A stretch of 64,000 nt of DNA from Eledone cirrhosa. Lineage: Eukaryota. Shown one piece after another: positions 2,133 through 61,307 of this stretch. Made by a program: the position numbers and the translations under genes. The notes under the pieces were generated by a model. It did not search any database, was not told the DNA's origin, and saw nothing but the letters and a program-made list of their open reading frames with translations. The stretch lies in NCBI GenBank assembly GCA_964016885.1, contig OZ024759.1, forward strand, positions 15,810,001 through 15,874,000, written 5' to 3'. Positions within the stretch are counted from its first letter, which is position 1, and the number at the start of each line of letters is the position of its first letter.

Positions 2133-2319
2133 AAGGAAGTGTGGTAAGGAACCAGGTGAACCATAACGCACCAGAGTACTCAATACTTAGGGTAGTAGAG
2201 TGGGTAATAGGAAAATGTTTAACCCCGACGGCAGAACTCAAGCCATTTCGACCGGTATTTCTGGACAGTTCAGAAATAGCCGTCGAAACGGCTTGAGCTC
2301 TGTCGTCTGGGTTAAACAT

Positions 2320-2323
<4 letters not shown>
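2133..2323 (-). mobile_element. Family A foldback element carrying the HHR 3' half in a terminal hairpin
   Basis: Hairpin arms about 2211-2263/2271-2323 contain GAAACGGC-ttgagctct-gtcGTC. The body is the reverse complement of 1030-1100. Confidence 0.8.
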
Positions 2324-2379
<56 letters not shown>

Positions 2380-12839: not shown

Positions 12840-12876
<37 letters not shown>

Positions 12877-12885
<9 letters not shown>

Positions 12886-13258
12886 TGTAAGCTATCGCCG
12901 TATTTTGACTAAAGAAATTAAAGAAATTATTTAGCCTGACAGTGGGGTTAAGAACCCTCGGAGAAATGGAAAAAGATGAGTATTGACGTACATGGGAGTC
13001 GAACCCACATCTTTGGTTATCCGGACCACTGTGCTACCATTGATGTGTTGGTGTAAATGGTAGCACAGTGGTCCGGATAACCAAAGATGTGGGTTCGACT
13101 CCCATGTACGTCAATACTCATCTTTTTCCATTTCTCCGAGGGTTCTTAACCCCACTGTCAGGCTAAATAATTTCTTTAATTTCTTTAGTCAAAATACGGC
13201 GATAGCTTACATTTCTAATAATTTCAAACTAACTCACTGTTTCGAAAATATTCTTACT

Positions 13259-13259
<1 letters not shown>
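12877..13259 (+). mobile_element. tRNA-headed foldback element in (TA)n
   Basis: Near-perfect inverted arms 12877-13041/13056-13220, a 14-nt loop, a tail to 13259, and TA tracts on both sides. Confidence 0.85.
13040..13114 (+). pseudogene. tRNA-like head (SINE-type Pol III promoter), not a canonical tRNA
   Basis: Acceptor stem ttgatgtg/tacgtcaa, A box tggtgtaaatgg, T loop ggttcgactcc. The anticodon loop ccggata lacks U33. Confidence 0.75.
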
Positions 13260-13291: not shown

Positions 13292-13667
13292 TCAGGTTTG
13301 AGGTTCACCACTGGATAGAGCTGGTCAATTCCGTATGGTCAATCTTAATGTAATAATATGGAGAGTACTCAACGTAAAGCAGTTCAACCGTCTTTGTTTT
13401 TGTAGTTGGTGGTGCTAGTACGGAGTTAAATATTATAATGAAATGACAGGAGGCTGGACTTGTGTAAATCCTTGAAAGGCTTATTATACTATGATCATTT
13501 GATTTTCAGCCCCATGGATTTTATCTATTACATTCACTTATTATATTTCGAATACCTGATGATATCACCAGATTCATCCGGAACCCGGTCATTGAAATGA
13601 TCATAGTATAATAAACCTTTCAAGGATTTACACAAGTCCAGCCTCCTTTCATTTCATTACAATATCT
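13291..13667. mobile_element. TA-flanked foldback element with HHR
   Basis: Inverted arms 13430-13500/13595-13665 with a few mismatches; unique tail 13291-13429. Confidence 0.85.
13552..13609 (+). ncRNA. Type I hammerhead ribozyme
   Basis: atac-CTGATGA-helix II (atcacc/ggtcat, imperfect)-GAAA-TGATCA-T-A-gtat. Helix III is the palindrome ATGATCAT. Confidence 0.75.
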
Positions 13668-13951
13668 ATATATATATATATATATATATCATAAATCATG
13701 TCCGTAGAAATATTAGATAAAATATATACCATTTCCTCTCGCAATTAGCATAATTAATCATATAAAAAAATCAATTAGACCAGGCTATAAGAATAAAGGC
13801 ACCTATGAAAAAATATTTGATAAATAACCGAAAGCGGCCTCTTCGCGGTTGACCCCAATAGGGTATTTACCCAACATTTCAACAGCATGTAGAAACTGAC
13901 TAAATATACCGTCAACCATACACAATTTATATATATATATATACATATATA

Positions 13952-14195: not shown

Positions 14196-14530
14196 ATAGA
14201 AACAAGTAAGACCCCGACGGCTGAGCTCAAGCCGTTTCGACGGCTAATTCTGGACTGAATGAAAATTTATTCTGGTATTTAAATAGCCGAGCTTATCAAG
14301 GGGTAATTCCATATATGGTCAAAAAGATAATCACCAGGATTGGTCACATCACAAGTTAGTAGTAAATCTGTGATGGCAAATTTTCATTCAGTCCAGAATT
14401 AGCCGTCGAAACGACTTGAGCTCAGCCGTCGGGGTCTTACTTGTTCCTATTACCCACTCTACTACCCTAAGTATTGAGTACTTTGGTGCCTTATGGTCCA
14501 CCTGGTTCCTTACCACATTTCCTTCGTTAT
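14196..14530. mobile_element. Family A foldback element (most complete copy)
   Basis: Inverted arms 14196-14268/14378-14450, a tail to 14530, and TA flanks. Confidence 0.88.
14211..14304 (-). ncRNA. Type I hammerhead ribozyme, U3-A8 core variant
   Basis: Minus strand: acccc-TTGATAA-g..cggcta...tagccgtc-GAAA-CGGC-ttgagctca-GCCG-TC-ggggt. Helix I is 5 bp, the cleavage triplet is GUC, and loop III contains a GAGCTC palindrome. Confidence 0.8.
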
Positions 14531-14668: not shown

Positions 14669-16442
14669 CACTAAATATTATGAGTTGTGAATGTGTCTGT
14701 TAGACTATATATGTTCCTATGTACTTCTTGATAAACATGAAAATGATATAAAGGCGTTATATGAAACATGTATACGTAAATGAATACATACATACATATC
14801 ACGTCGATATTCTCTTATGCATATGTCTAAACACAAGCACTCATTATGGCGAGAGAGAGAGGGGGAGAGAGAGAGAGATACGCACGCACACATATATATG
14901 TATATATATATATATATATAGTGACAAATATATACACACACACAAACATATGTGTATATATATATAAATAATATATATATAAGAGAGATGGTATCACAGA
15001 CTCACCAGTTTATCAGCCTAACATACACACATACATACACATACATTTATGAATGTACAGACGCGCATATATATATATATATGTACACACACACACATAT
15101 ATATATACAGACACGCATATATATATATGTACACACACACACATATGTACACACACACACATATATATATATATATGTACACACACACACATATATATGT
15201 ACACACACACGCACACATATATATATATGTACACACACATATATATATGTACACACACACACACATATATACATATATATATATATGTACACACACACAC
15301 ATATATATATGTATGAATGTACAGACACACACACACACATATATATATATAAATATATACACACACAAACACATATATATATGTATGTATGAATGTACAG
15401 ACACACACACATATATATATATATATACACACACACATACACACACATAAAGGCACACACATACACATATATATAGGTACACAGACACAAAGATATATAA
15501 ATTCACGCAAATATATTCTCTTTCTTATTATTTTATTTCTTTCTCTGTTTTTGTCATGCGGCAACTTTAGGAATTCTCTCCGATTCCCTATCGCCAAAGA
15601 TATGACAAACTTGAAGATTTTGTTCCTGATACAACCAATAAACTGTTCAGTGTCTTGTGAATTACTATCGAACTAGGGAATCGAAGCTGATAAAGATATA
15701 GTGAAATCTATTTTGGTATTTGTGGCAATAGCGCATGTGTAATTCATTGATATGGATATGGTGCGTGTTCTCTCTCTCTCTCTCTCGATTAACTTACCAA
15801 GCATTGGGAAATGTGAAAGACAATATTGTCGCCACAATGCACAAAAAACAATAATTGATAGCTATACAGACATATACATATATATATATATAATCTCTCA
15901 TGATGGTGATGTTATATCTGATCATTTTATATATATATATATATATATGAAAACAGGGAGAAAGAGACGATTATGAGGAAGAAAAAAATTTTTTTTTTCC
16001 TTTTTTTGTCTCTCTCTCTCTCTTTTCTGGGTTAGAAAATGATTAAAACGAAATGTTTTACTTTGTGTGAAGTGTTAAGGTATTAGTTGATTTATTTATT
16101 ATTTAACAATGGCATTTATTTATCTATTTATATATTTAATTATTGTCTATTACCGGTTTCTGCATTTATATGCATTATCAAATGATAGTGAAATATATTA
16201 GTGTGGTGTTACACATGTTAAACAGAAGGTGAAGAAAGAATAATGTTATATACAAACAAGGTTTGTATATATATATAATCTCCTTCACGCCGACGTTTAT
16301 ATTTTTCTTGGTGCAATACTTCTTTATATATATATTAGGAATTTATTTGCTTTAACATATGTTTCTGTGTCTATCATAATTGTCTACATATGCTGACTAC
16401 AATATATATACATATATATACCCAATATATATATATATACCC

Positions 16443-16500
16443 GTTTTGTCTGAAGAAGGCATGCTATAATTTAGCACACCAGAAATATATATAATGAAAT
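16443..16500 (+). ncRNA. Type I hammerhead ribozyme
   Basis: gttttgt-CTGAAGA-a-gg..tgcta-taatt-tagca..cc-a-GAAA-TATATA-T-A-atgaaat. Confidence 0.7.
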
Positions 16501-16914
16501 AAATAATGATACTATAGTGTTATATATACTGTTTATGACTATTATTATCATCATACTACTCCAGATAAATTTTTAGCTGTTGAGTGCTTCGTATCTATTG
16601 TAAACGTAACTCTATTGATTACACATCAACAAAGTCTCTAACACATTATATATATATATATATATATGTGTGCACACACACACATACTTACACAAATGCA
16701 TAATATATAATATAATTAAGTTTAATCTATAAATATAAAATATATATTGATTATATTACTCAACAAAGAAGGCGCAATCAACATCAATTATAAAATTTTA
16801 AACGGTATGCAAACATTTTTTCGTATATCATGTAGTATGTACCTATATATATAGAAAACAAATAATAAACGTATTCAAGATAAAATGAAATCAAAATTGC
16901 TTAAAGCTCTTTTA

Positions 16915-17321: not shown

Positions 17322-17392
<71 letters not shown>

Positions 17393-17552
17393 CTTCTACA
17401 GGACTACAACTGTTTCATTCGTGATAAATCATCAGGAAGCACACACATATATATATATGTATGTGTGCGTGCTTGTGCGAGAGAGTGTGGGGGTGAGTGT
17501 GTGTAGAGTGTGAGTGTATGTGTGTGGTGTGTGGTGTGTGCCTGTGTGTGTG

Positions 17553-23175: not shown

Positions 23176-23932
23176 CATAAATATACATAAATATACATAT
23201 ATATATATACATATACATACATATATACATATACATATATATACATAAATATACATATATATATATACATATACATACATATATATATATACATATACAT
23301 ACATACAATATACATATACATATACATATATACATATACATACATACACATATATATATACATATATATATACATATATATATACATATATACATATATA
23401 TATATACATATATACATATACATATATATATACATATATATACACACATATATATACATATATATACACATATATATACACATATATATATACATATATA
23501 TATATACATATATATACACATATATATATATATACATATATACATATACATACACAAATATATATACATATATACATATACATACACATATATATATACA
23601 TATATATAAACATATATATATACACATATACATACACATATATACATACATATATATACACATATATATATACATATATATACACATATATATATACATA
23701 TATATATACACATATATATACATATATATATACACACATATATATATACACATACATACATACACACATATACATATATATATACATATACATATATATA
23801 CATATACATATATATACATTCATATACATATACATATATATACATATATATACATATATATATATATACATATACATATATATATATATACATATACATA
23901 TATATATATATACATATACATATATACATATA

Positions 23933-24150
23933 TATAGATAATTTAATATATCAACTAACATAAGCGCACAGATGCACGCCCATGCCAGCAAATACACAGG
24001 TTATGTCATAGTACCTAGGTGGTTCAATGCAGGAGAATGCAGAACAATAATATAAAGGACGTAAAATAAGAAAATATTTTTTTTAAAAAAATTTTAAAAA
24101 ATTTTTTTATCTTACTTAAATTTTCACTCCAACTAATTAGTTTCTGCAAT
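23933..24150 (-). mobile_element. Inverted partial monomer of the 560-bp HHR repeat
   Basis: Reverse complement of the monomer from attgcagaaactaattagttggagt to attatctata, then (TA)n. Confidence 0.92.
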
Positions 24151-24584
24151 AAAAAATATTTTCTTATTTTACGTCCTTTATATTATTGTTCTGCATTCTC
24201 CTGCATTGAACCACCTAGGTACTATGACATAACCTGTGTATTTGCTGGCATGGGCGTGCATCTGTGCGCTTATGTTAGTTGATATATTAAATTATCTATA
24301 TTTATCTCCAAATCACTGATTTGTCGAGCAAACTTGTCAAAACCACTTCTAAAAAAATTTTTTTTGGGGTGTTAGTAGGCGTCAGTCATCTTACCATCCC
24401 ATTCCTTCTAACTAGCCTCTGTGTCACGTGATTGATTCTTTAGAATCGGCCATTTGACTTGAAGCAGTGAGAATTTCGGTACATGGAATCCAGTCCTCGC
24501 AAGCTGTTCAATCTACCGAATTATTATTATTTTTATATGAGCCGCCAGTGTCCGCGCATTGCCTGGAGACTTAACTGAGAATAG

Positions 24585-24666
24585 ACTTCCTGATGACGCA
24601 ATGAATTCTCGACAGTTGGATTACATAACTGTCTTTATCCCATTGCAGAAACTAATTAGTTGGAGT
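24585..24666 (+). ncRNA. Type I hammerhead ribozyme (copy 1 of 5)
   Basis: acttc-CTGATGA-c-GCAATG-[gacagtt/aactgtc inner stem]-CATTGC-a-GAAA-CTAATTAG-T-T-ggagt. Confidence 0.85.
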
Positions 24667-25143
24667 GAAAATTTAAGTAAGATAAAAAAATTTTTTAAAA
24701 TTTTTTTAAAAAAAATATTTTCTTATTTTACGTCCTTTATATTATTGTTCTGCATTCTCCTGCATTGAACCACCTAGGTACTATGACATAACCTGTGTAT
24801 TTGCTGGCATGGGCGTGCATCTGTGCGCTTATGTTAGTTGATATATTAAATTATCTATATTTATCTCCAAATCACTGATTTGTCGAGCAAACTTGTCAAA
24901 ACCACTTCTAAAAAAATTTTTTTTGGGGTGTTAGTAGGCGTCAGTCATCTTACCATCCCATTCCTTCTAACTAGCCTCTGTGTCACGTGATTGATTCTTT
25001 AGAATCGGCCATTTGACTTGAAGCAGTGAGAATTTCGGTACATGGAATCCAGTCCTCGCAAGCTGTTCAATCTACCGAATTATTATTATTTTTATATGAG
25101 CCGCCAGTGTCCGCGCATTGCCTGGAGACTTAACTGAGAATAG

Positions 25144-25225
25144 ACTTCCTGATGACGCAATGAATTCTCGACAGTTGGATTACATAACTGTCTTTATCCC
25201 ATTGCAGAAACTAATTAGTTGGAGT
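25144..25225 (+). ncRNA. Hammerhead ribozyme copy 2
   Basis: Identical to 24585-24666. Confidence 0.85.
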
Positions 25226-25704
25226 GAAAATTTAAGTAAGATAAAAAAATTTTTTTAAATTTTTTTTAAAAAAAAATATTTTCTTATTTTACGTCCTTTA
25301 TATTATTGTTCTGCATTCTCCTGCATTGAACCACCTAGGTACTATGACATAACCTGTGTATTTGCTGGCATGGGCGTGCATCTGTGCGCTTATGTTAGTT
25401 GATATATTAAATTATCTATATTTATCTCCAAATCACTGATTTGTCGAGCAAACTTGTCAAAACCACTTCTAAAAAAATTTTTTTTGGGGTGTTAGTAGGC
25501 GTCAGTCATCTTACCATCCCATTCCTTCTAACTAGCCTCTGTGTCACGTGATTGATTCTTTAGAATCGGCCATTTGACTTGAAGCAGTGAGAATTTCGGT
25601 ACATGGAATCCAGTCCTCGCAAGCTGTTCAATCTACCGAATTATTATTATTTTTATATGAGCCGCCAGTGTCCGCGCATTGCCTGGAGACTTAACTGAGA
25701 ATAG

Positions 25705-25786
25705 ACTTCCTGATGACGCAATGAATTCTCGACAGTTGGATTACATAACTGTCTTTATCCCATTGCAGAAACTAATTAGTTGGAGT
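25705..25786 (+). ncRNA. Hammerhead ribozyme copy 3
   Basis: Identical to 24585-24666. Confidence 0.85.
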
Positions 25787-26264
25787 GAAAATTTAAGTAA
25801 GATAAAAAAATTTTTTAAAATTTTTTTAAAAAAAAATATTTTCTTATTTTACGTCCTTTATATTATTGTTCTGCATTCTCCTGCATTGAACCACCTAGGT
25901 ACTATGACATAACCTGTGTATTTGCTGGCATGGGCGTGCATCTGTGCGCTTATGTTAGTTGATATATTAAATTATCTATATTTATCTCCAAATCACTGAT
26001 TTGTCGAGCAAACTTGTCAAAACCACTTCTAAAAAAATTTTTTTTGGGGTGTTAGTAGGCGTCAGTCATCTTACCATCCCATTCCTTCTAACTAGCCTCT
26101 GTGTCACGTGATTGATTCTTTAGAATCGGCCATTTGACTTGAAGCAGTGAGAATTTCGGTACATGGAATCCAGTCCTCGCAAGCTGTTCAATCTACCGAA
26201 TTATTATTATTTTTATATGAGCCGCCAGTGTCCGCGCATTGCCTGGAGACTTAACTGAGAATAG

Positions 26265-26346
26265 ACTTCCTGATGACGCAATGAATTCTCGACAGTTGGA
26301 TTACATAACTGTCTTTATCCCATTGCAGAAACTAATTAGTTGGAGT
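26265..26346 (+). ncRNA. Hammerhead ribozyme copy 4
   Basis: Identical to 24585-24666. Confidence 0.85.
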
Positions 26347-26823
26347 GAAAATTTAAGTAAGATAAAAAAATTTTTTAAAATTTTTTTAAAAAAAATATTT
26401 TCTTATTTTACGTCCTTTATATTATTGTTCTGCATTCTCCTGCATTGAACCACCTAGGTACTATGACATAACCTGTGTATTTGCTGGCATGGGCGTGCAT
26501 CTGTGCGCTTATGTTAGTTGATATATTAAATTATCTATATTTATCTCCAAATCACTGATTTGTCGAGCAAACTTGTCAAAACCACTTCTAAAAAAATTTT
26601 TTTTGGGGTGTTAGTAGGCGTCAGTCATCTTACCATCCCATTCCTTCTAACTAGCCTCTGTGTCACGTGATTGATTCTTTAGAATCGGCCATTTGACTTG
26701 AAGCAGTGAGAATTTCGGTACATGGAATCCAGTCCTCGCAAGCTGTTCAATCTACCGAATTATTATTATTTTTATATGAGCCGCCAGTGTCCGCGCATTG
26801 CCTGGAGACTTAACTGAGAATAG

Positions 26824-26905
26824 ACTTCCTGATGACGCAATGAATTCTCGACAGTTGGATTACATAACTGTCTTTATCCCATTGCAGAAACTAATTAGTT
26901 GGAGT
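26824..26905 (+). ncRNA. Hammerhead ribozyme copy 5
   Basis: Identical to 24585-24666. Confidence 0.85.
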
Positions 26906-27007
26906 GAAAATTTAAGTAAGATAAAAAAATTTTTTAAAATTTTTTTAAAAAAAATATTTTCTTATTTTACGTCCTTTATATATACATATATATATATATA
27001 TATACTT

Positions 27008-27052
<45 letters not shown>

Positions 27053-27075
27053 CATATACATATATATATATATAT

Positions 27076-27623
27076 GAGGGTGTTAAAGTTTGCTTGAAGC
27101 ATTGTGAAATATGTAAAATATGTAGTTTAGAAAGCCACAACAATGCAGATGGGAAATCTCTAGGTAGGAAGTGAGTGAGAAATAGGAGAAAAGTGAAAAT
27201 TGTGAGAAACGAAAAAACGAAAACAAAACAAAGGTAGAAGGGTTACCGTAGTGGAGATTTAATCCCAATATTTCGGGCTCACGCCCATCAACGGGGGGAA
27301 ACTTCCAAAAGGGGGGGAACAGGCTAAGCCGGAGAAAGTTGTATTGTCGTTAAAACATAGGAATGCCGTTATAACGGCATTGTTTTAACGACAATACAAC
27401 TTTCTCCGGCTTAGCCTGTTCCCCCCTTTTTGGAAGTTTCCCCCCGTTGATGGGCGTGAGCCCGAAATATTGGGATTAAATCTCCACTACGGTAACCCTT
27501 CTACCTTTGTTTTGTTTTCGTTTTTTCGTTTCTCACAATTTTCACTTTTCTCCTATTTCTCACTCACTTCCTACCTCGAGATTTCCCATCTGCATTGTTG
27601 TGGCTTTCTAAACTACATATTTT
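27076..27623. mobile_element. TA-flanked, nearly spacerless palindrome of about 510 bp with a short left tail
   Basis: Arms 27115-27371/27372-27623, centre gtta|taac, one 5-nt indel and a few mismatches. Confidence 0.9.
27440..27475 (+). ncRNA. Variant minimal hammerhead-like motif (mirror copy on the minus strand in the left arm)
   Basis: cccc-CCGTTGA-t-GGGC-GTGA-GCCC-GAAA-TA-T-T-ggga. Helix II is GNRA-capped, helix III is the palindrome AATATT, and the core deviates at U4 and A6. Confidence 0.5.
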
Positions 27624-27643
27624 TAATATATATATATAGATAC

Positions 27644-27674
<31 letters not shown>

Positions 27675-28669
27675 CATATATATACATATATATATATATA
27701 TACATATATATACATATATATATATATACATATATATACATATACATATATATACATATACATATATATACATATACATATATATACATATATATATATA
27801 TACATATATATATATACATATACATATATATACATATATATACATATATATATACATATACATATATACATATACATATATATACATATACATATATATA
27901 TATACATACATATACATATATATATATACATACATATACATATATATATATACATATATATACATATATACATATACATATATACATATACATATATATA
28001 TATACATATACATAAACATATATATATACATATATATATACATAAATATATATACATATATATATACATACATATATATACATATATATACACATACATA
28101 TATATACATATATATACATATATATATATACATATATACACATACATATATATACATATATATACATATATATATATACATATATACATATACATATACA
28201 TATATATATATACATATATATACATATATATATATACATATATATATATACATATATATATATACATATATATACATACATATATATATATACATATATA
28301 TATATACATATATATACATATATATATATACATATATATATATACATATATATACATATATATATATACATATATATATATACATATATACATATATATA
28401 CATATATATATATACATATATATACATATATATATATACATATATATACATATATATATATACATATATATATACATATATATATACATATATATATATA
28501 CATATATATATATACATATATATATACATATATATATACATACATATATATATATATACATATATATATATACATATATACATATATATATATACATATA
28601 TATATATACATATATATATATATACATATATATATATACATATATATATATATACATATATATATATAC

Positions 28670-29025: not shown

Positions 29026-29506
29026 AACATATATATATATACATATATATATACATATATATATATACATATATATACATATATATACATATATACAAAT
29101 ACACATACCTATATACATACATATACATATATAATTATACATATATATCTTCAGATTTTCACAACGTCTGCTCGCAGCGTAGGTAGGGTAGCAGTAAAGG
29201 CAGCAGGCGGTGACGGCAATGAAAGGGTGGAGGTGGAGAGGGGAAGAACTCATTATTCAAGAACACAAAGAACGCTACGACTGAGATTGCAGAAGATTGA
29301 CATTAAATATACATTACTATGTGGTTGTAATATTAGACATACAGCGCGTAACCTAATGAAAACCTCTATTACGTAGGAACCCATATCTTAATAACACTTA
29401 ATGAAACCAATGCGAATAAGATATATTTTAATATATATGCATATATAACTATATATGCGCATATCTATATATGCATATATGTATATATATATATATATAT
29501 ATACAC

Positions 29507-29576
<70 letters not shown>

Positions 29577-29591
29577 ATATATATATATGTG

Positions 29592-29700
<109 letters not shown>

Positions 29701-29737
29701 GTGTGTATATATATATATATGTGTGTATATATATATA

Positions 29738-29768
<31 letters not shown>

Positions 29769-29775
29769 GTGTATG

Positions 29776-29891
<116 letters not shown>

Positions 29892-29969
29892 TATGTATAT
29901 ATATATATATATATGTGTATGTATATATATATATATATATATGTATGTATATATATATATATGTGTATG

Positions 29970-30608
29970 TGTCTCAGACGGATCCATGGCGTTCACTGGA
30001 GGGACCACATCAGTGATGTCGAGATTTTGGAAAGCTCTATGTGTGACAGTATAGAAGCTCTTGTGCTTAAGCAACGACTCCGTTGGAGTGGTCACCTTGC
30101 CAGGATGAAGGATTCTAGAATACCAAAACAACTCTTCTATGGAGAGTTGGTTAAAGGAAAACGACCGCCACATAACCCAAAAAAGAGGTATAAGGATTCC
30201 TTGAAAGCCTCTCTGAAAGACGCTAACATCTCTGCTGATACATGGGAAAATATTGCTGCTGATCGTAATAAATGGAGAAAGACTGTATATGAGGGAAAAG
30301 TTGCCTATGAGGCATCTCGAATCGCACACGAGAAAGTAAAGCGGAACGTGAGGAAGGGCATTGCTGTTGCACTTCCAGACGGCGAGGGTCCTCCTATGGT
30401 GCTGACATGCAGCGTCTGTGCGAGACTCTGCCTAAGCAAAGCTGGACTCGAAAGTCAACTTCGCAGCCATAGAGTAAGGCCAGTGGTTGACTACCAGGCT
30501 GCTGTTGGAGATGCTACTCATCATGCTTGCCAAGCATGTGGTAGAGAATGTAAATCAGCAGGAGGGCTCAAGATGGCCATACTCGATAACGAGGGGGCAG
30601 CCATCATA
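29970..30608 (+). mobile_element. 5'-truncated RTE (BovB-like) LINE 3' end
   Basis: [13 protein letters not shown]...[27 protein letters not shown]...PKKRYKD plus CxxC zinc-finger-like motifs; 3' end atggccatactcgataacgagggggcagccatcat. Confidence 0.9.
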
Positions 30609-30693
30609 TGTGTATATATATATATATATGTGTATGTATATATCTATATGGGTGTGTATGTATATATATATATATGTGTGTATGTATATATAT

Positions 30694-30768
<75 letters not shown>

Positions 30769-30940
30769 CATATATATATACATATATATATATATATGTG
30801 TGTGTGTATGTATATATATATATGTGAGTATGTATATATATATATATACACACATACATATGTATGTGTGCATATATATATATATATGTAGTCATATATA
30901 TATGTGTGTATATATATATACACACATACATATGTATGTA

Positions 30941-30983
<43 letters not shown>

Positions 30984-31028
30984 ATATATATGTGCGTATA
31001 TATATATATATGTGTGTGTATATATATA

Positions 31029-31102
<74 letters not shown>

Positions 31103-31281
31103 TGTATATATATAGATGTATATATATACATGTATATATATATATATGTGTATATATATATATGTAGACATATATATATATATACATATGTATGTACACA
31201 TATGTATACATATATATATATGTGTACATATATATATATGTGTACATATATATATATATATACACATATATATATGTGTAC

Positions 31282-31313
<32 letters not shown>

Positions 31314-31321
31314 ATATATAC

Positions 31322-31373
<52 letters not shown>

Positions 31374-31433
31374 ATATATACATATATATATATATGTACA
31401 TATATATATATATACATATATATATATATGTAC

Positions 31434-31528
<95 letters not shown>

Positions 31529-31545
31529 AGTATATATAAGTATAT

Positions 31546-32367
31546 ATACGATGCCTGCATACGAACAGCAATGCTGCATGGCAGTGAGACCTGGGCATTG
31601 TGTGCAGAGGATATACGCAGACTAGAGAGGAACGAAGCCTGCATGCTCCGCTGGATGTGTAACAGTAATATACGTGAACGGCAAAGCATAAACGAACTAA
31701 GGAAAAAATTAGAAATAAGAGGGATCAGATGTTGTTTACTCGAGAGAAGGCTACGTTGGTATGGACACGTGATGCGCATGAAAGTCGATAGCTGTATAAC
31801 AAAGTGCAGGGCAATAAAGATAGACGGTAGCCACGGAATAGGCAGACCCAGAAAAACCTGGGACGAGCTGATAAACTCCGACCTCACACACTTACACCTC
31901 TCCAAGACAATGTCACTGGACCGAGACCTTTGGCGGTACTCAGTAACAGAGAAGACCCGCCTTACCTAAATACATAGTAAAACCTACTACAGCCAGTAGG
32001 CATCTCTAACAAAATACCCCCCCCCCCGTCCCACCACCACCACCCCCACCAAATCCACACCACCCCGTTCTATGTAAAGTTATGTTGGTGCCACACCATC
32101 CAGGCCGAAACAAATGAGATCGTGTAGGTGTCACGACAAAAAAACACACAGTCCACGCTGTAATGTGGCCGTGTAGGCAACACGGTAAAAACCTCCCAGA
32201 CCCACACTGTAAATGTGGTTGGTGTTAGGAAGGGCATCCAACTGTAGAAAACCTGCCAGACAGTCCTATGCGAGCAAGACAATCACTCTTGCCTCAAGTG
32301 GGACTACCCCCGTCCAAACCCATGCAAGCGTGGAACACGGACGTTAAACGTTGATGATGATGATGAT
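31546..32367 (+). mobile_element. 5'-truncated RTE-clade LINE 3' end with 3' UTR and (GAT)n tail
   Basis: MLHGSETW...MLRWM...[12 protein letters not shown]...GRPRKTW (stop at 31969); ends ggacgttaaacgttgatgatgatg. Confidence 0.9.
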
Positions 32368-39770: not shown

Positions 39771-40129
39771 TTGATAATATATATATAAGAGCATACGATG
39801 AAAGCCAAGTGAAGACAAGAGTGTGCCTTGTTGGCCAGCGGCTTGTATGAATTATAATATATTTTTGTAACTCCATCTGTAACACTTAAATTTACAAACA
39901 AAAACACACATATACATACAAAGCATTTCCTTTCTCATTCACTCTGCTAAAATAAAAATTTCGCTTTCCAGACACATGAAGCTGGGTTCTAATCCTACAT
40001 ATGTCCCTGTAAATAGTTATTTCTCCATAGTTACTTATACGTTTAATCATGAATGTCATTTGTACATATATGCTAAACATTTATATAATTTTAGTCTAGA
40101 AACTATACTAAAAATATTTTTATCTTTAA

Positions 40130-40532
40130 TAATTGTTTCTACTTTTGGCACAAGGTAACAATTATCCCAGTGCATTACTGGTACTTTATTTTATCGACCC
40201 CGTAAGGATGAATGGCAAATTTAACCTCAGCGGGATTTGAACTCAGATCGTAAAGGGGCGTAACTCTACGTTACAAAGTATGGCGTCCGACTCTCTACCG
40301 ATACTGACAATCCACCGCCCTTTTTACATTCTATAATAATAATTGTTTCTACTTTTGGCACAAGGCTAGCAATTATCTCAGTGCATTACTGGTACTTTAT
40401 TGTATCGACCCCGTAAGGATGAATGGCAAATTTAACCTCAGCGGGATTTGAGCTCAGATCGTAAAGGGGCGTAACTCTACGTTACAAAGCATGGTGTCCG
40501 ACTCTCTACCGATACTGACAATCCACTGCCCT
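40130..40532 (-). mobile_element. Tandem dimer of SINE C
   Basis: Two copies of about 190 bp (40130-40321 and 40340-40532). Confidence 0.85.
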
Positions 40533-41582: not shown

Positions 41583-41626
<44 letters not shown>

Positions 41627-41706
41627 GAGTGTGTGAAAATAATTTTCGCAAAGCCCTATTATGTCTATTATGATTATATATATCATGAATATACATTGGC
41701 AAAGTG

Positions 41707-41775
<69 letters not shown>

Positions 41776-41918
41776 AGTATATGTTGGCTGTACACCAACC
41801 CCTCAGTATGCAGATTGGAGCACTCGACGAAGTGCGCAGGTTCGTTTGGTTACTCCGGAGTAATGTAAAATAAAATAAAATAAATAAGTCAAATGTTTGA
41901 AATTTGGCTTCGTTTATT

Positions 41919-41973
41919 ACTGCTATATATATTTCGGTGACAGCCATCTGTGGCTGTGACCTCTTCAGGCAGT
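41919..41973 (-). ncRNA. Canonical type I hammerhead ribozyme
   Basis: actgc-CTGAAGA-ggtcacagcca-caga-tggctgtcacc-GAAA-TATATA-T-A-gcagt. Confidence 0.9.
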
Positions 41974-42114
41974 CCGAATTAGCGTGGTAGAGACGAGTAC
42001 ACATGTTGTTGAGGTGTTTAACTTTGTCAATACTCTGATATGCCCAGTTCCTGGTTGGGTTGTTATTTCACTGAGGAACTGGAATCATATATATGATTCA
42101 TATATATGATTCGG

Positions 42115-42169
42115 ACTGCCTGAAGAGGGCACAGCCAAAGATGGCTGTCACCGAAATGTATATAGCAGT
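42115..42169 (+). ncRNA. Canonical type I hammerhead ribozyme
   Basis: actgc-CTGAAGA-gggcacagcca-aaga-tggctgtcacc-GAAA-TGTATA-T-A-gcagt. Confidence 0.88.
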
Positions 42170-42409
42170 AATAAACGAAGCCAAATTTTAAACATTTGAC
42201 TTATTTATTTTATTTTACATTACTCCGGAGTAACCAAACGAACCTGCGCACTTCGTCGAGTGCTCCAATCTGCATACTGAGGTGTTGGTATACAACCAAC
42301 ATATACTCAATATATATATATACATATATATATAAGCACTTTGCCAATGTATATTCATGATATATATAATCATAATAGGGCTTTGCGAAAATTCTTTTCA
42401 CACACTCCG

Positions 42410-42508
<99 letters not shown>

Positions 42509-43879: not shown

Positions 43880-44708
43880 TATATATATATACACACACAC
43901 ATATATATATACACACACATATGTATATACACACACATATATACATATACACACATATATACATATACACACACATATATATACACACACATATATATAT
44001 ACACATATATATATATACACATATATATATATATATACACATATATATATACACATATATATATACACACATATATATACACACATATATATACACATAT
44101 ATATATACACATATATATACACATATATATATACACACATATATATACACACACATATATATACACATATATATATACACATATATATATACACATATAT
44201 ATATACACATATATATATACACATATATATATACACATATATATATAAACATATATATATACACATATATATATAAACATATATATACACATATATATAT
44301 ATACACATATATATATATACGCATATACATATATACACATATATATATATACACACATATATATATACACATATATATATACACATATATATATATACAC
44401 GCATATATATAAACATATATATATACACATATATATATATACACACATATATATAAACATATATATATACACATATATATATACACACATATATATAAAC
44501 ATATATATATACACATATATATATACACACATATATATACACATATATATATATATACAAACATATATATACACATATATATATATACACACATATATAT
44601 ATACACACATATATACACATATATATATATACACACACATATATATACACATATATATATATATACACAGATATATATATATAAATACATATATATATAT
44701 ACATATAA

Positions 44709-44745
<37 letters not shown>

Positions 44746-44784
44746 TATACATATATATATATATATACATATATATACATATAC

Positions 44785-44821
<37 letters not shown>

Positions 44822-45045
44822 TATACATATATATATATATATACATATATATACATATACATATATATACATATACATATATATACATATATATATATAT
44901 ACATATACATATATATACATATACATATACATATATATACATATATATATATATATATACATATATATACATATATATATATATATACATATATATACAT
45001 ATATACACATATCTATATATACATCTATATATACATATATATATA

Positions 45046-47826
45046 TTGCGAAGCAGTCACTGTATTCAGTCAAACCAACAACCTAATAGTAGTTGGGCTC
45101 TATAGGCCACCCCAAACGCCTCCACCATGCTTCAAGGAATGCCTCAACAGCATAAAGTGTTCCATCCAAGAGTGTCACCCTGACAACATCTTAATGATGG
45201 GGGACTTCAACCTCCCCGGAGTTGACTGGTCCACAAACAGCCTGCCACCAGGTTCTTCTGCCTCAACCTCTGACAGGGAAGCAGTGGAATCGCTTCTTGA
45301 CGTCATGGATGATTTCTTCCTGTCCCAACTGGTGCTCGAACCAACGAGGTGCCACAAAAACGTCCTAGACTTAATTTTCAGCAATCACACTGACAATATC
45401 CACAATATTGCAGTGGAGAAAACTCTACTCTCTGATCATGACATGGTTCTCTGTGATCTGATATTCCACCGTCCAATATACAAACCCAATGTCATCTCTC
45501 CTGTCCATCCGTTTGACGCTATGGATTTCCACAATGCAAACTGGGAAGCGATCAGTCATGATCTTGCGCATGTCGACTGGTCCTTCACGCACACTCATAC
45601 ACTCACTAACATCAAAAAGTCCTGGCAGACATTTGTGGACACTGTTACAAACATATGTGCAAAACACACCCCATTAAGAACTAGAAACAAATCTAAGAGC
45701 AGAATCCCTAGAAATAGAAAAACGCTCATCAGGAAAATTAAGAGAACTAACAAAAAAATCAAGAAGCTGAAATACTGTCAGCAGCAACACATAAACTTGA
45801 CTGCCATTTCATCACTAGAGATTAAAAAACATAACCTCCAAAACAATATGATGTCTATCATCAACAATCAGAGAAGAGCTGAAGAGGCCTGGGCCATTGA
45901 GAAAATCAAACTCAATCCCAAAGTGTTCTTTTCATTTGCAAAAAAAACACAAAATCACTGGCTTTACTGTTGGCCCTCTAATTGATGAAAGTGGCACTCT
46001 TCAAGACAATGCGAAAACCATGGGTGAGATACTGCAGAAACAATACTGCTCTGTTTTCAGCAATCCTGATATGGCCGATCTGGGCTGTATCGGCGATGTT
46101 ACTCCCCATTACACCTTATCGGACATAACGTTTGGCGCCCCTGATGTCTTAGCGGCAATAAAGGAAATCAAGCATAATTCAGCAGTAGGTCCCGATAGGT
46201 TCCCTTGAAGGCGTATCAACACCAACTTGCATCTTCTCTTGCCAATCTGTGGCGGAACTCACTGGATGCTGGATATGTGCCAGAAAACCTTCTATCCCAG
46301 TCTGTTGTCCCAGTTTTCAAAAAAGGAAACAAATCCCTTGCCGTGAATTACCGTCCAATCTCACTCACCTCTCATATCATTAAGGTATTTGAGAGAGTGG
46401 TGAGATCGCGAATGACTCACTTCCTTGTGAGTAACGGAATCCATGCTGGTTGGAGTTCAGCATATTCTGAACTCCAACCAGCATGGATTCCGTAATGGAA
46501 GGGATTGCCTGGCGCAGCTACTGCATCACTTTGATGACATTTTGAGAGCCTTGGGGGAGGGTTCCAACACTGATGTTATCTACCTTGATTTCAGCAAGGC
46601 CTTTGACAGGGTTGATCACAACATTCTACTGAGAAAGCTGTCCAATATTGGTGTCCAATATTGCTGGAAAGCTGCTGCAGTGGATCAAGAGCTTCCTGTC
46701 AAACAGAACCCAACATGTTGTAGTCGAAGGAGTCAAATACAGCCCAGCCAAAGTCAGTAGTGGGGTCCCACAAGACACTGTGTTGGGCCCACTTCTCTTC
46801 ATCATCTATATTAATGACATCACTGACATCATCAAACACAGCAACATTAGAATTTTCAATGATGATTCCAAGCTCCAAAAGGTCATCAATGGCGTGGATG
46901 ACCGGATAAGCCTTCAGTCAGACCTACTGGCTGTTACCCAATGGGCGGAAAAGAACAACATGTTGCTGAACGAAGACAAATTCGAACTGATCCACTTTGG
47001 AAAAGAGGATGCTTTGAAACTCCCGTACTCCCTTCCCTCCGGTGAAACTCTCGTGGCATCTAACATCAGAGACTTGGGAGTAACCGTGGACAGCAACATA
47101 AGCTGGGCCACGCATATAAGCAGCAAAGTTGACATGGCCCGCAGAATGTGTTCCTGGATCCTCAGAACCTTCCAGTCGAGAGATTTCCACACCATTATCC
47201 TTCTCTTCTCCACTTTTGCCCGACCACATCTTGAATACTGTTGTCCACTGTGGTCTCCCCACACGAAACAAAGTATCATGAAACTTGAAGCTCCCCAAAG
47301 GGCAATCACGAAAAAGATAGATGGCATGTCAGACCTTAACTACTGGGGTCGACTAGAAAAGCTGAAACTTTACTCACTCCAACGTCGCCGTGAGCGTTAT
47401 ATTATCTGCATGATGTGGAAAATGTTTCATCAGCACTGCCCAAATGATGTTGGCATCACCTTCAAAATACACCCAAGGCTTGGGCCCCGTGCTATCCGCC
47501 CCAAACAAAAATCTAAATCCCAACACATAGCAACAATACGGCACAATTATTTTACCTCAATCGGCCCTGCTCTCTTCAACATCACACCAGGACACGTCAA
47601 AACAGAAAGTGACCACACAAAATTCAAGAAGTCTTTGGACAAATTCCTCCAAGTAATCCTGGACAAACCACCCACACCCAGATATGTCTCCGCAAACAGT
47701 AATTCTCTTCTCGAATGGGCCATGGTGCCCAAATCCTGAGTTGAAAGACTTCGCCAGGTGGTACTATTAAGTTAGACATTGCCTGGGCCAATACTGGCCA
47801 AAACATTTCAAAGTTATTCAAAGTTA
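45046..47826 (+). mobile_element. CR1-clade LINE with a 5'-truncated, frameshifted ORF2 (APE endonuclease plus reverse transcriptase)
   Basis: YRPP, MGDFNLP, LDLIF, SDHDMV (endonuclease); NYRPISLTS, QHGFR, YLDFSKAFD, SGVPQ..VLGPLLF, FNDD (degenerate xADD), RPHLEYC, LQRRRER (RT and C-terminus). Split over 5 ORFs; tail ttcaaagttattcaaagttat. Confidence 0.93.
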
Positions 47827-54088: not shown

Positions 54089-54251
54089 TGGTGTTGTAAT
54101 GACAGAAAATATATATATATATATATATGAATGTGTGTATAGTATATGTGGCAATATACCGTATGTTTAATTTAAAATATTTAGAAGACCATACGCTATC
54201 AGTTTTGAAGTAGCGACTATGTCACTTCTTTTCGGCGAAAGAAGGGAGAGA

Positions 54252-54293
54252 AGCTGACAGTCTGTTTCAGGCCGGTTGGCATTCATCAGAACC
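54252..54293 (-). ncRNA. Type I hammerhead ribozyme
   Basis: ggtt-CTGATGA-atgcc-aacc-ggcct-GAAA-CAG-a-CTG-TC-agct, enclosed by an outer stem ttttcggc/gccgaaaa. Confidence 0.78.
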
Positions 54294-55039
54294 ACGCACT
54301 CCCCTGCTTCTGCCGAAAATTATAGAAGCTGGATTCTTATAGAATTCCATATATATATATATATATATATATTTTGTTGTAGTTTGCTTGAAGCATTGTG
54401 GAATATGAGATACAAATACGACTAGGAATTTGGAAGTTCGACAAAGCGTGTTAGGTAAAAGGGCCAAGGATCATTAAAATTGCTAAAGTAACTTTCTATA
54501 GTCCTCACTCTTTTATTTCAGTTCATTTTATTCCTCTACTTACTTTCTTAAATTCTTATTGCTTTGGCACTTTTACTCAACACGCATTGTCGAGCTTCCA
54601 AATAACCAAACTCATTTCCTATGTATCTCATATATATAAATATACAAACAGAGGTATAGTGTGTGTCCTTCCCTTTCTATCGCTGCTTGGTCCTTCTTTG
54701 TTTTTCTCCTTTTCTGTTCCCTTTAATGATTTGTTTTGTTTTCATTTCCTTCTATACAAATTCAGTGTTGTTATGTCTAGTCTCAAGGAGTTTTATAGTG
54801 TTATATACATTAAATAGACATTTTGAAACTTATAAGTGTATGTATAAAGAAACTTTTAATCTCTATTACAAATTTTGCTACAATTTTCCTTATTATGTAT
54901 TTAAGAGTTTCACCTAGCGATTTAAGAGGAGAAACTGCTTTGAGCATTCTGCCAATCCACCGCTTTAGTCTAAAAAGTCTAATGTCTGTCACGAGGCCGG
55001 AGACTCCTCAGTTCGTTGCTTATCTCGGCATAAAACGAG

Positions 55040-60696: not shown

Positions 60697-60882
60697 ATAG
60701 ATTCTTATAGCCAGTCAGATATATATATATATATATATTTATATTTATCGTTTATCCATTTATCGTTTTCGGTGCGCCCGGCCGACTAAACTCACTCGAT
60801 ATGCAAATTAGACTGCTCAGCCGTTAATATGCATAAGGAAAGTATGTACTTTCAGACGATCAACCATCTGGCAGGAAGGTAT

Positions 60883-60925
60883 ACGATGCTGACGATAGCT
60901 AATAAGCTTGAAACTAGTACATCGT
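60883..60925 (+). ncRNA. Canonical minimal type I hammerhead ribozyme in a TA-flanked cassette (60745-61050)
   Basis: acgatg-CTGACGA-t-agct-aata-agct-t-GAAA-CTAG-T-A-catcgt; helix I is extended by cagga/tcctg. Confidence 0.9.
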
Positions 60926-61307
60926 TCCTGTGTCAGTGTTGAACAAAAAGGTGACGTGGTTGCCTAAACACTGTACGGCGTAATTCGGGCTGTTTGTTTG
61001 TTTACAAACAAACCGAACATTATAATAAATGTTCGGTAAACCGATACGTGCATATATATATGTGTGCATGTTTGTATATATATACATACTACTGTACGTC
61101 TGTATACATATATGTATGTACGTATACATACATACTTATATATATATATATATCTATATGACTATAAGAATCTATAACGATATGTCAAAACATGATTAAA
61201 CCATGTATTGTATGTGCTAGTATGTGTGTATATATATACATATATCCATGTACATATATATATATATGTGTGTGTGTGTGTTTGTACGTATATACATATA
61301 TATATAT

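Follow-up and report, generated by a model that had tools for sequence, protein, structure and literature searches.

What moves a short repeat that has the tRNA-like head of a SINE and lies folded back on itself between (TA)n tracts? The question is raised by one locus in a stretch of 64,000 nt of Eledone cirrhosa DNA (the window), where the preliminary description had proposed a Pol III SINE parasitizing Penelope-like (PLE) machinery. The sequence evidence makes mobilization by a PLE highly probable, and the proposal gains support from foldbacks, two internal 3' ends, (TA)n targets and tandems. We regard the element, with good confidence, as a Pol III-transcribed, ribozyme-free, non-autonomous PLE passenger with a 271-nt unit, copied by a Penelope-like RT/GIY-YIG protein. 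Unit positions are written as q, with q1 at window position 13041, and the copy in the window has the following features.

12843..12879, no strand: left (TA)n target tract, seen in the sequence
12877..13041, minus strand: inverted 5'-truncated copy, unit q180 to q16, beginning at the short reverse-transcription start site
13041..13258, plus strand: forward copy, unit q1-218 of 271, without the linker
13042..13113, plus strand: tRNA-derived head, cloverleaf (ARAGORN, Rfam); anticodon not conserved across subfamilies
13049..13060, plus strand: Pol III A box, TGGTGTAAATGG
13092..13102, plus strand: Pol III B box, GGTTCGACTCC, and T arm, with the 5'-truncation hotspot q57-74 (13097-13114) just 3' of it
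13116..13133, plus strand: trailer, pairing with the linker 3' end; T5 at 13123-13127
13194..13240, plus strand: stem-loop with arms q156-162 and q194-200, enclosing the short start site q180-182 (13220-13222)
13223..13258, plus strand: PLE-type "tail" between both start sites, q183 to q218-221 (PMC8557442, PMC11167929)
13259..13291, no strand: right (TA)n target tract

ARAGORN places a tRNA at 13041-13114, and Rfam model RF00005 matches 13042-13113 with 42.4 bits (gathering score 29), the sole Rfam match in the whole window, which confirms the tRNA-like head with A and B boxes reported earlier. The TA-flanked foldback, described as a 165-bp inverted copy stopping about 40 nt short of the tail, is equally clear. 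Perfect arms of 159 bp (12883-13041 and 13056-13214) enclose a 14-nt loop, the next-best perfect stem near the foldback center being 4 bp, and by BLAST the left arm is 165 bp long (q16-180, 99.4% identity) and ends 38 nt before the right end of the copy. The window arms (12883-13214), identical over 159 bp, have a common private variant at q117; foldback arms elsewhere in the family differ at about 4 sites per 100 nt. We propose that the insertion is very recent or that gene conversion has acted between the arms; the locus L145 is similar. The motif ATACGG does occur at 13194, where it overlaps the 5' arm of the q156-162/q194-200 stem, but its standing as an enriched motif common to the cassettes had to be dropped, its 8 matches in the window falling short of the 43 that shuffles predict. 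The stem-loop of this copy is weakened by G196A. Because the linker is absent and the stem pair is broken, the copy is probably inactive, and from its sequence it would, on balance, be a dead-end progeny copy.

How large are the family and its unit? A DNA search of the 3.0-Gb assembly with the element gave 1,415 first-look candidates, and the 40 that were scored are full length with 97 to 100% identity. Genome-wide there are 1,083 exact matches to a 24-mer of the body, and none to a control pattern. In the flanks of the top 30 copies the sequence runs past the end of the window copy through a 53-nt stretch (about 50 nt in general) into the next head, so that the unit is 271 bp, composed of tRNA head, body, tail and linker. 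The earlier view of a head plus a body of about 145 nt (about 220 bp) as the whole element thus describes the window copy correctly but misses the tandem linker. Mean divergence from the majority sequence is 2.2% over 83 pieces, with few variants in common; the family is young, with copies in the thousands. For a sister subfamily, B, the body pattern has 1,833 matches, head plus body 506 and the tandem junction 270, and an older type was sighted once, at L183.

Two loci stand apart by their copy arrangement. L203 (G000 C4, 61.01 Mb) is a 10.2-unit array with nine ARAGORN calls, which would inflate tRNA-Ser gene counts in annotation; it shows signs of growth by local duplication and was rejected as evidence for a rolling circle. 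L204 (G000 C2, 314.53-314.62 Mb) consists of at least nine tandem duplications of 7.2 kb, each with one element copy and with what by eye looks like a cysteine-rich EGF-type exon.

Insertion geometry was read from an unselected sample, namely, all of the first 100 pattern matches on contig C1, which make up 86 insertions. An inverted 5' piece of at least 20 nt is present in 57 of them, so the foldback is not unique to the window, and it is absent from 29. The tandem unit junction is crossed in 15 insertions, a partial-tandem trait of non-autonomous PLEs. A (TA)3 or longer tract lies within 22 nt of the 3' end in 81 of 86 insertions, against 158 of 1,089 background windows (14.5%). The sample agrees with the preliminary description on both TA flanks and 5' inversions. 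Forward 3' ends fall at q211-228 in 65 insertions, at q176-186 in 15 and elsewhere in 6, with 1 of the 86 beyond q221; the outer ends of the inverted pieces fall at q176-186 in 30 of 57 and at the long site in 2, the rest being scattered at shorter sites. There are two internal 3' start sites, at about q182 and at about q218-221, some 39 nt apart. Ordinary target-site duplications are not the rule, candidates of at least 8 nt occurring in 3 of 86 insertions (one of 19 nt). With two internal ends and these three candidates, the SINE2 combination of RNA 3'-end priming and target-site duplication is not seen; fixed terminal inverted repeats are likewise absent, as are the paired long terminal repeats and 4- to 6-bp duplications of the TRIMp3 type, the 5' ends being variable and the flanks (TA)n.

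According to Craig 2021 (PMC8557442), PLEs are marked by partial tandems, a neighboring 5'-truncated copy in inverted orientation, a tail of 30 to 40 bp and (TA)n targets. A PLE protein was shown to cut both strands of AT-rich DNA (Frangieh 2024, PMC11167929); its reverse transcription begins at two sites within the RNA, one at each end of the tail, and RNA to +172 is needed by the protein, with the commonest start at +111-118 (PMC11167929). The element has all four architectural features, i.e., partial tandems, the inverted 5' copy, a tail between two starts and (TA)n targets, and displays each genomic PLE trait listed in these two papers.

The 5' ends are variable and clustered. Among 143 of them, 77 lie at q57-74 and 18 at the head edge (q265 to q11), and formal p-values for these clusters overstate significance since arms of the same foldback are not independent observations. 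Stops at q57-74 amount to 4.8 per 100 nt at risk compared to 0.27 elsewhere, with 121 passes entering and 45 getting through. This cluster is at the T arm, immediately 3' of A58. An m1A58 block would fit the position and was rejected as its cause, since misincorporation is missing: of 107 copies that read through, 105 keep A58. Candidate causes are the fold of the T arm or microhomology at CATG/AT. The head-edge cluster has a sharp upstream edge, with five ends at G269, three at A267 and none at q247-q266; 10 of its 18 ends lie at q1-11 and 8 (q267 or q269) keep 3 to 5 linker bases. G269 follows a pyrimidine (a C268/G269 step), 11 nt upstream of the A box and four nt before the tRNA. A Pol III start is expected at a pyrimidine-purine step about 11 nt before the A box, and the pile-up fits a putative start at G269.

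Is the head a working tRNA? The A and B boxes are kept within the family and, together with the trailer and the acceptor, D and T arms, between subfamilies. The anticodon loop varies, and the head is therefore no functional tRNA. Its anticodon is of Ser type, yet the variable loop has 4 nt and position 33 is C, presumably a mismatch to the isotype body by tRNA isotype rules. From these sequence features, transcription of the element by Pol III is likely; contigs of X1 and X4 were taken as evidence of presence only, and X4, in 7 low-depth pieces, was left out. Apart from the T5 in the trailer, the unit has no run of four or more Ts.

Two pairings recur in the RNA. The first is the 7-bp stem q156-162/q194-200 around the short start site, whose 5' arm, ATACGG, is kept within the family. 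Its pair C160-G196 becomes U-A in subfamily B (by eye, 94 A, 5 G and 1 T among 100 copies listed), and G158A and the L183 variant also preserve the pairing. In the second, the 3' end of the linker and the T5-bearing trailer form a duplex (-18 to -23 kcal/mol) that extends the acceptor stem, with the unit junction opposite a 3-nt bulge. By eye, subfamily changes in the linker (A to G opposite U, C to U opposite A) preserve this pairing, and the linker 5' half drifts between subfamilies while the 3' half stays paired. The stem change and the linker changes are single events, partly at CpG sites, which for the C-G to U-A change counts against the passenger reading. The linker-head-trailer fold is modestly stable (z of -1.9; 9 of 200 shuffles as good). 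The earlier statement that the element has no hammerhead (HHR) is upheld: a search of both strands of the unit, non-C3/G8 cores included, gave no hammerhead core, and the 80 Rfam matches at E of 10 or less in three tandem loci include no ribozyme family.

For the PLE passenger we suggest the following course. Pol III would, with fair likelihood, start at G269 from the A and B boxes inside a tandem copy and sometimes read through T5. The PLE protein would very likely bind the stem-loop and the downstream linker, nick the two strands of a (TA)n target and prime inside the RNA, one strand per site, the two cDNAs meeting head to head in a foldback with a tail of about 39 nt. Monomers lacking the linker would be dead ends, somewhat more probably than otherwise. 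How, then, are tandems renewed? A transcript ending at the T5 of the second unit (about 360 nt) would have a tRNA head at both ends, and cDNA strand transfer through this redundancy might renew tandems without a ribozyme, by analogy with Cassandra, a step to which we give slightly less than an even chance. Against this scheme, one would expect Pol III to terminate at the conserved T5 that directly follows the head. Short U tracts are said to terminate poorly unless structure is near (bioRxiv 10.1101/2020.09.11.294140), and the tRNA fold adjoins both T5s, so nothing seen here would make the first leakier than the second, and leakiness is an assumption.

Tandems could also persist under PLE mobilization with neither strand transfer nor circle, if Pol III or Pol II read through a few long arrays that are kept by unequal crossover, the dispersed copies being mostly dead. 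That the L203 array grew by local duplication means that tandem masters can arise without strand transfer, and the star-like family with its 2.2% divergence points the same way, as do the exact two-junction matches, 4 genome-wide, and the exact linker matches, 182 compared to 1,083 for the body. However, the private variants of L203 (C175A, A192G and an insertion at q205) are not the majority state in the family, and several subfamilies each have many dispersed tandem junctions, the 270 of subfamily B among them. We consider this account possible but unlikely.

Another PLE-based account, which we rate as improbable, invokes RNase P, which would cut read-through RNA at the heads into RNAs one unit long, the tRNA fold taking the part that a hammerhead plays elsewhere; the linker-trailer helix would splint the unit into a nicked or ligated circle for rolling copying. 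The extension of the acceptor stem by this helix, with the junction opposite the bulge, suits such a circle, and so do the invariant acceptor, D and T arms beside a variable anticodon, the precise junctions with alleles common to the units of one insertion, and the 10 of 18 head-edge ends at q1-11. The 8 ends that keep linker bases lie upstream of the RNase P cut, and the intact A and B boxes with the C268/G269 step suit Pol III initiation instead. Allele sharing fits all three models of tandem renewal (redundancy, RNase P circle and array read-through): at q191, where 30 of 146 copies have the minor allele, the pieces of one insertion agree in 28 of 30 pairs, a count that leaves out the arrays L171 and L203 and the L204 duplication and includes one duplicated locus twice (L086/L175). 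The comparison of variants between arms (4.0 versus 4.3 discordant sites per 100 nt) is uninformative, since most differences arose after insertion.

Could the element be an ordinary LINE-dependent SINE, served, e.g., by a microsatellite-targeting Dong/R4 LINE, with inversions by twin priming? It has a classical tRNA head, no PLE homology was seen among the PLE-type regions sampled, and Dong-R4 is listed among the most active LINEs in Octopus vulgaris (PMC13282606). But both 3' ends are internal to the unit, and the linker, through which the tandems run, is almost never the place where an insertion ends. L1 twin priming splits one RNA copy between the arms, without overlap, whereas the arms of this element overlap over about 100 nt. 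As a control we took a SINE of conventional appearance from this genome (window 40127-40337), which ends in TTA repeats; one script found foldbacks in 0 of its 37 insertions versus 68 of 144 for the tRNA-headed element, the 144 including top-scoring copies with only rough de-duplication. This reading, very improbable in our view, is largely refuted. Scarcely credible is a DNA-level foldback element or MITE, or a palindrome from repair at fragile (TA)n tracts: many junctions do lie on the 4-nt palindromes CATG (q63) and ACGT (q68), but other 4-nt palindromes of the unit are no comparable hotspots, 29 of 86 insertions have no inverted piece, terminal inverted repeats are not fixed, and variable 5' ends with fixed 3' ends have the polarity of reverse transcription, which refutes this reading.

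If the element is a PLE passenger, which PLE is its partner? The genome is PLE-rich, with 10,596 first-look GIY-YIG candidates, of which 150 were scored; RT and GIY-YIG are both present in three of five ORFs tested, and ORFs reach 938 aa. In the 3' comparison, q140-271 has no homology (z of 1.5 or less) to the PLE-type 3' regions sampled, 50 GIY-YIG loci included, which represent a small part of the PLE families. This counts against the passenger reading, retrozymes and MRC1 being usually similar to their partner's ends. Five high z values came from windows with a copy of the tRNA-headed element itself. An 18-nt match between the element 3' end and a Neptune-type family was rejected, as it lies inside the 3' UTR of that family and 0 of 30 copies end there. 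L075 holds a Neptune-type inverted pair with its own tail of about 50 nt. At L280, the upstream sequence was first taken for an element with a common tail; it is the 3' UTR of a Hydra PLE, and the other 11 loci continue as Hydra, so L280 is a single chimera.

The Hydra-clade family found through this chimera has a 704-aa ORF with the motifs DKT, CxCx5C, CxxC and CxH, in agreement with the diagnosis given in PMC8557442. Pfam recognized nothing in this ORF, and Atlas groups it with HTH_animal/GIY-YIG clusters. The autonomous Hydra-clade PLE (L294, L295 and L298; G000 C2 and C5) has a 3.5-kb unit and is high-copy, with 2,567 first-look candidates, tandem and inverted pairs, a tail of about 80 nt and, by eye, an apparent hammerhead with a U3-A8 core in its pLTR; at least three more Hydra-like families are present in the genome. 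A fragment of it lies near the element in the window, and window positions 2150-2327 are probably also Hydra-clade PLE.

14196..14527, plus strand: foldback 3' fragment of the autonomous Hydra-clade PLE, a candidate partner (by eye against L295:2760-2958)

The Hydra and Neptune families are both candidate partners. Three copies are fused to other elements without TA, at microhomologies of 2 to 5 nt: to a retrozyme at L154 and L126 (2 of 86) and to the Hydra PLE at L280. At L154 an inverted hammerhead retrozyme arm lies head to head with the tRNA-headed element, L126 has the same retrozyme, and at L280 the Hydra 3' UTR ends in the last 28 nt of the element. Among 55 microsatellite-free ends in 158 insertions, those of L154, L126 and L280, plus the unclear L178 and L198, abut a library family. 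Mixed templates in one RT complex explain the fusions simply; they could also stem from separate insertion into a common TA tract, then microhomology deletion. The retrozyme-like partner in L126 and L154, present at window 60755-61130 (also L101 and L301), is a young hammerhead element with a unit of about 450 bp, 1,008 candidates at 98% identity and two 3' ends. It was considered as an autonomous partner and rejected; the single tandem locus retrieved proved to be a segmental duplication and lacks a PLE ORF.

How does the element compare to known systems? Non-LTR retrozymes, as presented in PMC7761336 and bioRxiv 10.64898/2026.07.22.740005, are likewise short non-coding units of similar size, tandem and dispersed; there they are proposed to be PLE-mobilized and are described as promoter-less, with a type I hammerhead per unit. 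The element differs in having A and B boxes, no hammerhead and no detectable pLTR homology in the regions sampled. Schistosome Sm-alpha and Sj-alpha also have a Pol III promoter in a tandem unit and single copies that are dead ends, but with a hammerhead and with the promoter at the 3' end of the cleaved RNA, whereas here the ribozyme is absent and the promoter heads the RNA (review, PMC6765202). Tandems, an inverted 5' copy, a tail, (TA)n targets and the lack of a clear duplication are found in the PLEs Hydra, Neptune and Naiad and in non-autonomous Chlamys elements such as MRC1 (PMC8557442; PMC11167929); unlike autonomous PLEs, the element has no ORF, a tRNA-derived internal promoter and no 3' similarity among the sampled families. 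The TRIMp3 group (Cassandra, Helenus and Ajax) similarly places a small-RNA Pol III promoter on a parasite of a non-LINE retrotransposon, and Cassandra RNA is reported to start in one 5S copy and end in the next, being terminally redundant (PMC10886601). TRIMp3 are of LTR type, with PBS, PPT and short target duplications, whereas the element inserts with PLE geometry (PMC10886601). In common with tRNA SINEs (SINE2), it has a tRNA head with A and B boxes, an unrelated body, a length below 300 bp and thousands of copies; in contrast to them, it is primed internally at two sites, has no poly(A) or evident LINE tail, shows frequent overlapping foldbacks and has a tandem-maintained linker. Octopus tRNA-derived SINEs were reportedly described by Ohshima and Okada in 1994.

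The octopus repeat surveys record many unclassified SINEs and recently active PLEs, and the pairing of a tRNA head with PLE mobilization is absent from their available portions (PMC13282606, PMC8967140). We found no description of a tRNA-headed, PLE-mobilized element in the literature searched, to which Repbase, Dfam, the 1994 octopus SINE paper and supplements did not belong, and a prior name is possible. The pairing of promoter and copying machine is probably new. More tentatively, the element may represent a third class of Pol III-driven retroparasite, PLE-dependent and ribozyme-free, beside SINEs (LINE-dependent) and TRIMp3 (LTR-dependent), in which the head would serve as promoter, as redundancy for strand transfer and as a clasp with the linker, and an RNA of about 360 nt would renew tandems indefinitely.

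SINEs are defined in practice as LINE parasites, and a tRNA-headed family with PLE geometry breaks this rule; if such a third class exists, PLE passengers may make up many of the unclassified SINEs in cephalopods and in other genomes rich in PLEs. The element would supply a missing combination, a Pol III promoter with PLE machinery, and give the retrotransposon class about which least is understood a natural substrate of minimal size. Within 271 nt it has two RT start sites that have been mapped, one of them enclosed by a covarying stem, and farther downstream a linker outside the insertion ends, making PLE template recognition, the origin of tandem and inverted insertions and the need for a hammerhead testable in an existing in vitro system.

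The neighborhood in the window is rich in comparable insertions. Positions 23928-26980 hold a five-copy tandem with a unit of about 560 bp, a type I hammerhead, a 223-bp inverted arm and (TA)n flanks, which is a textbook non-LTR retrozyme insertion. More TA-flanked cassettes lie at 1153-1606, 13427-13668, 16440-16640, 17392-17445, 26977-27758, 41614-42420 and 54120-54310, with hammerhead candidates in all except 26977-27758, foldbacks in four and tail lengths that vary by family. At 29352-31969 and 44249-47739, LINE-like ORF fragments (endonuclease and RT-like) are broken by long TA expansions.
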